In this document: positions 60,667-64,000 of the stretch, in pieces
Position numbering within the stretch: the stretch's first letter is position 1
Layout of the letters: every line of letters begins with the position of its first letter
Assembly (NCBI GenBank): GCA_027622665.1
Contig: JAQBYT010000001.1
Coordinates: 384,001-448,000, forward strand
Source: Verrucomicrobiota bacterium
Lineage (GTDB): Bacteria > Verrucomicrobiota > Verrucomicrobiia > Opitutales > Seribacteraceae
DNA length: 64,000 nucleotides
Direction: 5' to 3'
Made by a program: the position numbers and the translations under genes
The notes under the pieces: model-generated
The model's database searches: none
What the model was told of the DNA's origin: nothing
Seen by the model: the letters and a program-made list of their open reading frames with translations, nothing else

Positions 60667-60693
60667 TAAAGTTTTTAGTTTTCCGGCCGATTG
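60667..60693 (+). promoter_or_regulatory. Sigma28 (FliA) promoter
   Basis: TAAAGTTT-N11-GCCGATTG versus consensus TAAAGTTT-N11-GCCGATAA, upstream of flagellin genes. Confidence 0.85.
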
Positions 60694-60701
60694 TTTTAGT
60701 A

Positions 60702-60792
60702 GCTGCATGGATGCGGCCTAATTACTACATAGGTCCCGACCCACAAGGAGGTAGGTCAAGACTGTTCAACCACACTTTTTCCAGGAGGAAGA
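60702..60792 (+). promoter_or_regulatory. Three GGA-loop hairpins (CsrA/RsmA-type sites) immediately after the sigma28 promoter
   Basis: GCTGC-ATGGAT-GCGGC (60702-17); GACCCAC-AAGGAG-GTAGGTC (60738-57); TTTTCC-AGGA-GGAAGA (60777-92). Confidence 0.75.
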
Positions 60793-60795
60793 TTA

Positions 60796-61104
60796 GTGGC
60801 GACCGTTACCTTTACTTACTCATATTCTTTTAGTGGAGGTCGTGGGCAGCATCTACTTCGGCGGATGTCGTACACGGCTCTCCACATAGGCGATTGCCTT
60901 GCGGCTCTGCTGCGTACTCGTAGGCCGGGGTCTCCGTCTTGTGGTCCTCCCGGGCGAGCTTTGCCCGAATCTCTAAGTATTCTTTATAGATGGGTTGCTT
61001 GGGGTCCTGTTGCATTTCCTTTACCTCTAAGGGTGGGAATGGACAATTTGTCGTGTCCTCATGCCGCCCTCGTGTTTTCCCGCAACTTTATGACAACCCA
61101 TTAA
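60796..61104 (+). other. Doubtful 102-aa ORF with strong SD, possible remnant or leader ORF
   Basis: AGGAGG at 60783-88, 7 nt before GTG; product resembles no family I recognise. Confidence 0.3.
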
Positions 61105-61373
61105 CTAATATATGAACTCTTAACAGAGCAAGAGCTCCGCCAGGATGGCGGCGCCTACTCGCATTCACCTGCAAACTATTTCCGAGACAAGGAAGTCTCC
61201 TCATGCAACTTAGCAATTTCGTAACTTTACAGTCGCGAGGGCACCATCCCCGCAAATCTGTTCGGGTCTTCCCGTCCAGACCCTTAACTGGCTGTGTACC
61301 CTGCGGCTTGAAGGGAAGTTCATCTTTGGTATCCGTCTGTCGGAAAACTCACAAATCTCTCTTTTCCAAATAA
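61095..61373 (+). pseudogene. Duplicated flagellin leader plus truncated flagellin start (56-aa ORF, 61203-61373)
   Basis: Block ~61095-61241 resembles 61384-61530 (offset 289 nt); MQLSNFVTLQSRG vs MQLTNYGFIESRG, then unrelated sequence. Confidence 0.7.
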
Positions 61374-61419
61374 ACCAACAATAAACCCATAAACTAATCA
61401 ATGAACCTTACCTGATTTA

Positions 61420-61488
61420 GGGCTCCGCCAGGAGGGCGGCGCCCAATCATTTAATTACTAAATGTAAACCCTGAGACAAGGAGGTCTC
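61420..61488 (+). promoter_or_regulatory. Two CsrA-type GGA hairpins in the flagellin 5' UTR, the second holding the SD in its loop
   Basis: CCGCC-AGGAG-GGCGG (61425-39); GAGAC-AAGGAG-GTCTC (61473-88), ATG at 61492. Confidence 0.8.
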
Positions 61489-61491
61489 GTT

Positions 61492-62970
61492 ATGCAACTA
61501 ACCAACTATGGATTCATCGAGTCCCGAGGTAACTATATCTCGGCTCGAGCCAACTACGAACGTCCCATGGAACGCCTTTCCACGGGACTCAAAATCAATC
61601 ATTCCCGCGATGACGTGGGGGCTTTGGGCAAGTCTGCCCTTCAGCGTATCGAAAACACAAAAGTCGGGACTTTGCGCACCAACCTGCAAAACGCCTTGAG
61701 TTATACCAAGACTCAAGACGGCGCTTTGGAGAAAGTCGGCCGAATTTACGAACGCATGGAGACTTTGGCGCTCAAGGCGATGGACGTTACCTTCGACGAT
61801 CGGTCCAGAAGTGATTTGAACGATGAATATCAAACGCTGGAGGAGCAACTCTCCGGTCTTTTGAAGCAAAAGTTCAACGGCATTTCCCTTTTTACCAAGG
61901 CGACCGGATGTACGGAACCCGAGGTGACGGAATTGGAGGCCAGCTTCGATGCGGGACTTAATGAAACATTACCCCCAACTATTCCTGCCGTTGGGGTTAA
62001 AACGCAGGCAAACCCCGATCGATGGATCGCCACGCAGGATGTCGATACTACCGATGGAACCCTTACCTTGGACGTGAATGGAGGAAGAGCTTCCGAAAGG
62101 TATATCGTCAAGCAAGGGACGACCACGATCTTTGACACGGGTTGGTGGGCGACCAATGGTTCCGCTTATACTCATGACTTAGATCGATTTGTAATCGACT
62201 TCGGCAAGGGCAAGCCAACCACGTTCGAGTTTGTTCCTCGGGATACAGGTAATTCTACTACTGACAATACCCCTGACGGAGCTTTCAACAATGAGAGCTT
62301 TAACCTTAAAGGCGGCGGTGGCCCTTCTGGCTACTTGTTGCAACTGGGAGAAGGCTCGACGGCAGGTCTTCTTGGGAAAAAATATACAACAAGCGGTGGA
62401 CCGGTGACTCAAGGTCAGGTTGCGATAACACCGGCCCCGGGCGACAGTACGGAACTGACGATTGAGGTTCAATCCACGAGCTTGTTTCAAGCGGCTGCAG
62501 ACTTCAAAGGTGTCAAAATAATAGAGCCCGTGGAAGTTCCGGCATTAGAGGTCGTTGTCAACGAAGCTGGAGATATCGCGCGTTTCGAAGCCTTGGGGTT
62601 CAGTCGTCTATCCGGTACCGATATTACTACACGAGATAATGCGCAAGCAGTGCTTGAGCGTCTTCTCGGAGAGAACGGCGAAGCTACCGAGCACGGAGAA
62701 GTTCATTGCTTGGTGAATGGCCAAAGAGGTGAAATCGCCAAGAGTATGCGTCGTATGGAGTTGGAAATCGAAAGACTCGAAAACAAAACGATCAGCGGTG
62801 AAAAAACGCTTGGCCGCATAGAAGATGCCCACATGGCCAAAGAAGCGACCAAGTTTGCCAAGCAGTCTCTCAAGATGGAACTGGCCGCAAACATAATGTC
62901 TCGTGTAACTAGACTAACAGACGTGCTTTTGCCCTTGGTCACCCAACGAGTAGGTGGTCCCGGCTTGTAA
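61492..62970 (+). CDS. Divergent flagellin with beta-rich central domain
   Basis: ERLSTGLKINHSRDD, NLQNALSYTKTQDGAL, KFNGISLF; C-terminal GRIEDAHMAKEATKF. Confidence 0.9.
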   Translation: MQLTNYGFIESRGNYISARANYERPMERLSTGLKINHSRDDVGALGKSALQRIENTKVGTLRTNLQNALSYTKTQDGALEKVGRIYERMETLALKAMDVTFDDRSRSDLNDEYQTLEEQLSGLLKQKFNGISLFTKATGCTEPEVTELEASFDAGLNETLPPTIPAVGVKTQANPDRWIATQDVDTTDGTLTLDVNGGRASERYIVKQGTTTIFDTGWWATNGSAYTHDLDRFVIDFGKGKPTTFEFVPRDTGNSTTDNTPDGAFNNESFNLKGGGGPSGYLLQLGEGSTAGLLGKKYTTSGGPVTQGQVAITPAPGDSTELTIEVQSTSLFQAAADFKGVKIIEPVEVPALEVVVNEAGDIARFEALGFSRLSGTDITTRDNAQAVLERLLGENGEATEHGEVHCLVNGQRGEIAKSMRRMELEIERLENKTISGEKTLGRIEDAHMAKEATKFAKQSLKMELAANIMSRVTRLTDVLLPLVTQRVGGPGL

Positions 62971-63192: not shown

Positions 63193-64000
63193 ATGATTAG
63201 TGACCAAATCAACATGCATATTGCCAGAGAGTTGGGAACTTTGGATCGTGAGCATCGAGTTCACGTGAAGAAGCTTTCAACTGGCAAGCGCATACTTGCG
63301 CCCGGAGACGATGCGGGTGGCTACTCCTTGGCCGTGAAGCATGGAAGTGCCGCAAGGCGAACCCAAGCGATGCTGACCAATCTGCAAAACGTCCTTTCCT
63401 ACGCCCAAACCCAAGACGGAGTTTTGACTAGCGTTGGAAAGGTTTACAAGCGAATGGACGAACTTACCGCTATGGCGATGGATCCGACTAAAACCGATTC
63501 CGACCGTGCTTTATATAACAAGGAATTCCAAGAGTTGCGCGACATGGCAGTTCGGGCGAACGGTGAGGATTTCAACGGACTTCGCCTTTTCCGAGGGAAG
63601 CTATATGAGCTTGTTGACAAGGGGATGAAAATCAATTGGACCGACTCGAAGGCAGAGGTCGATGCACTGGACGCCGGAGATGCAAACAACACCTATTACT
63701 TGGCAACCATTACCTCTGAAACCGAGCAAGCGGAGGTTGGCCTACAGATCGGAGACGTCGGCATCAATGCTTGGCTCGGAGGAAATGATACTGCTGTTGA
63801 AGGGGAATGGAGGTGGACCGAAGGTCCCGAAGGCTTGGAGGATGGAGGCCAAGGCAGGCAGTTTTGGCAGGGCCAATCCAATGGCTCTGGCGTAAACGGT
63901 TCCTTTGAAAATTGGGGCGGCCGAGAACCAAATGATTCTGGGAACGAGGACTACCTTCAAATTAGCCAAGCTTCTAACCCCGTTGCCTCTTGGAACGATT
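63193..64000 (+). CDS. Flagellin with C-type lectin domain in the variable region (3' truncated by window; absent from ORF track)
   Basis: Manual translation: MISDQINMHIARELG...KKLSTGKRI...DDAGG...NLQNVLSYAQTQDG...FNGLRLF, then YELV..INWTDSK..YLATITSETEQ..AWLGGNDTAVEGEWRW..FENWGGREPNDSGNEDY..WND; AAGGA SD 8 nt upstream. Confidence 0.9.
   Translation, partial: MISDQINMHIARELGTLDREHRVHVKKLSTGKRILAPGDDAGGYSLAVKHGSAARRTQAMLTNLQNVLSYAQTQDGVLTSVGKVYKRMDELTAMAMDPTKTDSDRALYNKEFQELRDMAVRANGEDFNGLRLFRGKLYELVDKGMKINWTDSKAEVDALDAGDANNTYYLATITSETEQAEVGLQIGDVGINAWLGGNDTAVEGEWRWTEGPEGLEDGGQGRQFWQGQSNGSGVNGSFENWGGREPNDSGNEDYLQISQASNPVASWND

Follow-up and report, generated by a model that had tools for sequence, protein, structure and literature searches.

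The window analysed here, a stretch of 64,000 nucleotides from a marine Opitutales bacterium, ends inside a gene for a flagellin in which a C-type lectin domain replaces the usual variable middle region. The protein (hereafter the lectin-flagellin) is a flagellin by sequence and by fold, and, judged from the residues conserved among its homologues, the predicted sugar site of its insert looks functional. These comparisons suggest that the flagellum, or a secreted protein, is likely to grip specific sugars. The more specific reading that we favour, and to which we give about an even chance, is that of a minor flagellin that shows a Ca2+-dependent lectin of the mannose/fucose/GlcNAc type on the filament, with foreign glycans as the target. 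The open reading frame begins with an ATG at 63193 on the forward strand and has no stop before the window ends; the genome contig carries it onward (G000:C55:447193-448458, G000 being the host genome) to a stop after 421 aa. The gene and its parts are as follows.

63193..64000, + strand: lectin-flagellin gene, the first 269 of 421 codons
458 bases beyond the window, to G000:C55:448458, + strand: remainder of the gene, coding for the end of the lectin domain, the linker that follows and Flagellin_C (residues 338-411)
63193..63594, + strand: flagellin N-terminal D0/D1 helices, residues 1-134, with the Pfam match starting at residue 22
63595..64000, + strand: cysteine-free C-type lectin domain, residues 135-291, the last 22 codons lying past the window

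The Pfam family Flagellin_N (PF00669) matches residues 22-136 with E 2e-17 (63.8 bits, compared to a cut-off of 26.6), and Flagellin_C (PF00700) matches residues 338-411 with E 1e-12 (48.4 bits, cut-off 23). The first 21 residues are outside the Pfam match; residues 1 to about 20 are divergent, yet helical by prediction. An earlier sequence-only reading had described an N-terminal D0/D1 region ending in FNGLRLF, which is present as residues 127-133, followed by a series of lectin motifs, all of which were found: WTDSK (149-153), LATITSETEQ (170-179), WLGGND (194-199), EGEWRW (203-208), EPN (245-247), EDY (252-254) and WND (267-269). The residues of its motif patterns were thus correct, but the dotted spacings were short by one residue at three places. 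The flagellin C-terminal domain that it expected downstream is encoded in the retrieved sequence. Of the three-part Pfam architecture that it proposed, both flagellin parts were recovered, whereas Lectin_C (PF00059), matching residues 169-271, stayed under its cut-off of 22.6 bits (15.9 bits for the whole protein and 19.4 for the insert alone); in P0164, a member of the same family, Lectin_C passes at 28.8 bits.

The sub-cut-off Lectin_C match is more than chance, given the PDB matches, a lectin-domain profile and structural superposition. At E<=1 the insert matches 41 PDB sequences, every one of which is named as a C-type-lectin-domain protein; the best of them is langerin (E 8e-4), with whose EPN and WND motifs those of the insert align. 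A profile built from nine lectin-domain sequences gave 137 PDB matches at E<=1e-3, and the 60 of these that were listed are all C-type-lectin-domain proteins. An AlphaFold model was obtained from a 39-sequence alignment (mean pLDDT 82; 75-94 in 10-residue blocks of the insert) and compared with 48,161 solved chains. In this model, residues 135-291 superimpose on the scavenger-receptor lectin domain 2ox8 with Z 14.8 and rmsd 1.7 A (114 of 129 residues aligned), so that the C-type lectin fold proposed earlier is borne out by structure prediction. The modelled core aligns to the Caulobacter FljK filament subunit 6xky with Z 18.2 and rmsd 4.1 A (260 residues aligned over 1-419). It should be noted that Foldseek with the full model returned flagellins exclusively, among the matches listed, and the lectin fold match comes from the separate comparison with solved chains. 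A prediction for the insert folded alone without an alignment (pLDDT 40.5) was set aside.

A homologue search gave 214 matches among 7,993 scored candidates, and the best 120 were aligned with the query (121 sequences). In this alignment no sequence has a cysteine in the lectin domain (0/121); therefore, the domain is a cysteine-free bacterial variant and not an animal lectin, and the two bridges of a canonical disulfide-bonded animal C-type lectin are absent. The lack of cysteines would fit export as an unfolded chain. The modelled fold is nonetheless common to the animal EPN-type lectins, named kin being langerin, DC-SIGN, mannose-binding protein and surfactant protein D (Z 12.5-14.8 and rmsd 1.7-2.4 A for 2ox8, 1pw9, 1sl6 and 5g6u). 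The lectin-flagellin differs from them in having no cysteines, extra glycine-rich loops and 22-28% identity, and its multivalency would be supplied by the filament rather than by the trimer neck of animal lectins. The nearest non-flagellin relatives of the insert, 35-69% identical to it, are lectin-like domains of large secreted bacterial proteins, including long ORFs in the host's own bacterial family; their partner domains are cadherin/Ig, PKD, T9SS-tail or PEP-CTERM, and they are not fused to flagellin. Cysteine is present in 98 of 297 such non-flagellin domains, compared to none of the 121 sequences of the alignment.

The residues of the predicted site are located as follows.

63925..63933, + strand: EPN motif (E245, P246, N247), predicted primary Ca2+/sugar site
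63946..63948, + strand: E252, putative Ca2+/sugar ligand, 118/118 in the best-120 alignment
63991..63999, + strand: WND motif (W267 118/118, N268 118/118, D269 117/118 in the best-120 alignment)
63787..63801, + strand: D199 and E203, invariant (121/121 in the best-120 alignment)

Site statistics cover 118 of the 121 aligned sequences, the three left out being fragments. The EPN plus WND signature of Ca2+/sugar binding, to which the sequence-only reading had drawn attention, is intact, is accompanied by the downstream Glu and is near invariant across homologues. D199 and E203 are presumably ligands of an auxiliary Ca2+ site, by analogy with the structure of mannose-binding protein. The motif is EPN in 112 of the 118 sequences and QPD in six, with EPD and QPN in none (best 120 of 214 homologues plus the query). 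According to PMC9630629, EPN is the mannose/glucose/GlcNAc/fucose motif and QPD the galactose/GalNAc motif. In a motif-masked tree of 28 chosen domains, the QPD sequences form two separate clades, and the hypothesis that QPD arose only once is rejected (p-AU 1e-7); by this phylogeny the galactose-type motif arose twice, and such a repeated switch argues that the site is in use.

The mean column identity over the 121 sequences is 0.77 for the lectin insert, 0.72 for D1N, 0.66 for the C-terminal part and 0.61 for D0N, i.e., by this measure the insert is conserved at least as well as the core. Some pairs combine near-identical cores with differing lectins, which points to cassette exchange: P0027 and P0028 share 98% identity in the core but 83% in the lectin domain, and for P0111 and P0059 the values are 91-99% and 66%, respectively. 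One single-cell genome (L052) has QPD and EPN lectin-flagellins in tandem. On the sequences aligned, the family varies by switching the motif and by exchanging cassettes, and its binding site is conserved, not hypervariable.

Among the 78 matches listed, at least 11 loci match most of the lectin-flagellin, and all 11 are titled Opitutales, Opitutia, Puniceicoccaceae or Verrucomicrobia; the remaining 67 match mainly in the lectin region and are largely Bacteroidota, and the flagellin domain was absent from both of the lectin-region loci examined (2 of the 67). Of 24 genomes from the host's family, the insert was detected in 14, compared to none of 16 from the order's other families. Family-wide, 31 of 76 genomes contain it, 27 of them in flagellin-sized ORFs (by count, not individually confirmed), and it was found in 0 of 20 genomes of one genus in which FlhA is mostly present. 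Judged from gene content, the lectin-flagellin gene is dispensable in the host family. In a low-completeness relative (L031, G002:C50), the orthologue is split over two frames within the lectin domain, which is either an assembly error or a pseudogene.

More distant lectin domains occur in a second group of 850-1100-aa flagellins with canonical-looking cores (P0156, P0293, P0295 and P0318); Lectin_C is above the Pfam cut-off in P0156 and P0293, and the other two were found by the lectin-domain profile. Their lectin domains group apart from the Opitutales set in the tree, and the hypothesis that all flagellin-lectin fusions go back to one event (tested on 37 of 329 domains) was rejected with p-AU 0.006, a value to which two non-flagellin rows inside the Opitutales clade, one of them a 172-aa fragment, contribute. 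A second, independent lectin capture by flagellins is therefore likely on this tree. Elsewhere in the host genome, a 191-aa frame (G000:C14:43064-43639, - strand, L016) contains a Lectin_C domain above the cut-off that has cysteines and is without the EPN/WND site.

The host genome is 93.5% complete and encodes a near-complete flagellar set, with rod, ring, hook, export, motor, FlgK, FlgL, FliA and FliW genes in a cluster and FliD, FliS and CsrA also present. It has 14 Flagellin_N matches including the lectin-flagellin, and family genomes have up to 27; the flagellins of the host include short canonical ones, a Peptidase_M9 flagellin and a propeller/LamG flagellin split by a stop. The Peptidase_M9 flagellin is a flagellinolysin-like paralogue with HExxH and a match at the cut-off (G000:C30:4162-5907, - strand, L123), and the giant propeller flagellin combines a beta-propeller, LamG and Ig-like repeats with one interrupting stop codon (G000:C49:57227-62026, + strand, L121). 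A further paralogue (G000:C58:16097-17440, - strand, L011) has an in-frame TGA within the N-terminal domain. No chemoreceptor or CheW domain was found in the host genome. FlhA is present in 68 of the 76 family genomes and chemoreceptors in two; among the 26 best genomes of the family, the counts are 25 and 0.

FlgK (1083 aa), FlgL (1065 aa) and FliD (1151 aa) are unusually long (G000:C3, L019:12809-19279, and C15, L022:6916-10368), suggesting extra surface domains on the junction and cap, and FlgL has a CBM5/12-like match just under the cut-off. The label “hook-associated protein FlgL”, given to homologues of the lectin-flagellin by JGI, was rejected, given that a separate FlgL is encoded beside FlgK and flagellin models outscore FlgL models. 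Two MptE-like/Maf-type genes were found (G000:C8:8416-8931 and C40:6815-7306), the first of which adjoins the flagellin cluster.

The core of the lectin-flagellin is 32-38% identical to the two short canonical flagellins of the genome, compared to 47-53% for canonical flagellins among themselves; the core of the Peptidase_M9 flagellin is as divergent. A comparison of five genomes of the host's genus, which are not independent of one another, gives a dN/dS of 0.21 for D0N, 0.05 for D1N, 0.10 for the lectin, 0.18 for D1C and 0.07 for D0C, i.e., these alignments indicate that every segment is under purifying selection. The sequence-only reading had suggested that the filament itself could act as a multivalent glycan-binding polymer; as one of 14 Flagellin_N matches, the lectin-flagellin is more likely to be a minor subunit. 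The algal or particle polysaccharides that it had named as target found no support: the host genome has a single weak fucosidase match, and, according to PMC8857213, North Sea Verrucomicrobiota, including the flagellated MB11C04, appeared by FISH mostly as single unattached cells. The same source reports that flagellar proteins of MB11C04, which we do not equate with the genome studied here, are abundant late in blooms.

If the favoured reading is correct, the lectin-flagellin would leave the cell unfolded via the flagellar channel, in keeping with its lack of cysteines, and its D0/D1 regions would let it co-assemble with the short major flagellins. Seawater Ca2+ would fill the EPN/E/WND site, which would accept sugars of the mannose, fucose, glucose or GlcNAc type. 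Repeated along the filament, these individually weak sites may add up to an avid hold on foreign glycans, for example on phytoplankton surfaces, in gels or in polysaccharide exudates. As the lineage has no detectable chemoreceptors, a lectin filament may let the cell swim and stick instead of steering. The trees suggest that strains retune the specificity, by the EPN-to-QPD change and by exchange of the lectin cassette between cores. We tentatively consider a wider reading, possible rather than probable, in which the flagellum of this marine Opitutales family is a modular capture organelle of an unsteered swimmer; the genomes, with as many as 27 flagellin-domain genes each, would provide lectins, peptidases and propellers as plug-in parts, and the lectin subunit, having twice evolved the animal-type mannose-to-galactose switch, would trade cassettes to choose the glycans that are snagged.

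Several other explanations have to be weighed against display on the filament. In the main rival, the flagellin ends would serve as an export tag only, for a lectin that is secreted unpolymerised and is free or matrix-bound. The divergence of the core and of the N-terminal D0 is consistent with this view, as is the precedent of Vibrio FlaE/FlaF, which, according to PMC6692518, are co-transcribed with a flagellin, exported, left unassembled and bind exopolysaccharide; in their case, neither co-transcription nor flagellar export entails a place in the filament. Conversely, the strong purifying selection on D1N (0.05) and D0C (0.07) argues against it, although FliS binding might also account for D0C. 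D1N and D0C form filament contacts. The full-length D0/D1 of the model aligns to filament-form flagellins, and a lectin set free as a monomer would no longer bind avidly and would drift away in open water; on this evidence we regard the export-tag explanation as doubtful. The C-type lectin fold could also be kept as a Ca2+-stabilised structure or for a non-sugar ligand (a protein, a mineral, or shielding from phage or grazers). The missing disulfides and the insert's score under the Pfam cut-off can be read in this way, and the PDB matches include an antifreeze protein, lithostathine and CD23, members that are not known to bind sugar. However, the primary site retains all five of its residues, and the sole substitution in the best-120 alignment is the exact two-residue galactose-type switch, reached twice; this combination is difficult to account for unless sugar stereochemistry is under selection, and makes a non-sugar role unlikely.

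A filament lectin could alternatively bind the cell's own glycans, i.e., flagellin O-glycans or surface polysaccharide, and cross-link filaments or cells. The two MptE-like/Maf-type genes suggest that the flagellins are glycosylated, in line with the role of this gene family, and cassette exchange among strains could follow variation of the self-glycans. Against this, Maf enzymes transfer nonulosonic acids (PMC11339370), which are not EPN-type ligands (PMC9630629), and relatives were seen single, not aggregated (PMC8857213); binding to self is, in our estimate, improbable. Display of the lectin on the filament towards foreign glycans remains the reading that we prefer.

The closest parallels to such display are the flagellinolysins (PMC5595980), which likewise have D0/D1 ends and a functional domain with a conserved motif captured in the variable region, and which the accompanying reviewer text describes as a minor subunit beside structural flagellins and a minority component of the filament. 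For flagellinolysins, display on the filament is demonstrated there, whereas for the lectin-flagellin it is a prediction. The cargo is a lectin instead of a peptidase; no Peptidase_M9 match and no HExxH were found in the lectin-flagellin sequence, so that it is not itself a flagellinolysin. By analogy, the lectin-flagellin may work like a flagellinolysin with lectin cargo. The word lectin does not occur in the main text of Eckhard et al. 2017 (PMC5595980). The Vibrio FlaE/FlaF proteins share with our case that they are flagellin paralogues in a multi-flagellin genome with a link to polysaccharide binding. According to PMC6692518, they were shown to be excluded from filaments and are without a recognisable carbohydrate-binding motif, whereas the lectin-flagellin has EPN/WND. 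The DUF1566/Lcl_C (CLec) flagellin that is a retroelement target was also considered and rejected: it differs in fold subfamily, and no Lcl_C match was found at E<=1 in Pfam.

Supplementary Data 1 of Fields et al. 2024 (PMC11532411) contains an outer-domain cluster, number 213, that comprises five flagellins from Opitutae (421-460 aa); its representative, A0A2D8I1U9, is annotated with Flagellin_N, Flagellin_C and Lectin_C. Judged by taxon, length and domains rather than by sequence comparison, cluster 213 is very probably the lectin-flagellin family. The main text of that paper is without the words lectin, carbohydrate or sugar, and the cluster is an uncommented table row with no analysis of site, variants or function. 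Apart from this row, our literature search turned up no description of a flagellin that has a canonical Ca2+-dependent sugar site; the family is thus apparently catalogued yet undescribed. Flagella were already known to aid adhesion. If the lectin is displayed, it would give marine Opitutales a defined, testable route to recognise glycans, and would help explain why flagella are retained in a family nearly without chemoreceptors. The lectin-flagellins also offer EPN and QPD versions that occur naturally on near-identical scaffolds, as well as a lectin domain that is free of disulfides and usable for flagellar display. The conserved site and the repeated specificity switch, in a host poor in chemoreceptors and rich in flagellins, merit experimental follow-up.

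The lectin-flagellin gene is preceded by another flagellin gene, a candidate promoter and a long leader.

61492..62970, + strand: upstream flagellin, 492 aa, with an insert of another type, neighbour of the lectin-flagellin
60667..60691, + strand: sigma-28 (FliA)-like site TAAAG-N14-GCCGAT, 825 nt upstream of the two-flagellin pair
60725..61491, + strand: leader with six predicted hairpins carrying or overlapping GGA (CsrA and FliW genes are in the genome)

The upstream flagellin is likely to be co-transcribed with the lectin-flagellin, and a sigma-28-type promoter would then drive both. For the insert of the upstream flagellin, the ESM Atlas offered no more than a lead of low score (0.75); in RNA contigs from relatives (L001:2623-3814) its ends are kept and the middle, of about 1.1 kb, is different, suggesting that its cassette is swapped between strains. 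The candidate promoter was assigned by the sigma-28 consensus. It is 2.5 kb upstream of the lectin-flagellin, and 12 of 100 shuffles of the window also match. A relaxed form of the pattern shows no enrichment genome-wide (60 matches vs 64 in shuffled sequence), but it recurs ahead of other flagellins: of 13 further starts that were checked, four have it within 200 nt. The 222 nt immediately before the lectin-flagellin gene contain no sigma-28-like site; such a site lies within 1.2 kb upstream in five of eight homologous loci, those with at least 2 kb of upstream DNA.

RNA-library contigs cover parts of the gene in all four runs examined (four seawater studies; 22 runs listed), and two contigs reach from the upstream flagellin well into the lectin-flagellin. 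Neighbouring genes are also covered and DNA is possible; therefore, these contigs indicate presence rather than proven expression or a single transcript. The GGA hairpins of the leader are presumably of the CsrA type. The leader also contains a degenerate duplicate, of about 150 nt, of the 5' segment of the flagellin (61095-61247 vs 61384-61536) and a 102-codon ORF at 60796-61104.
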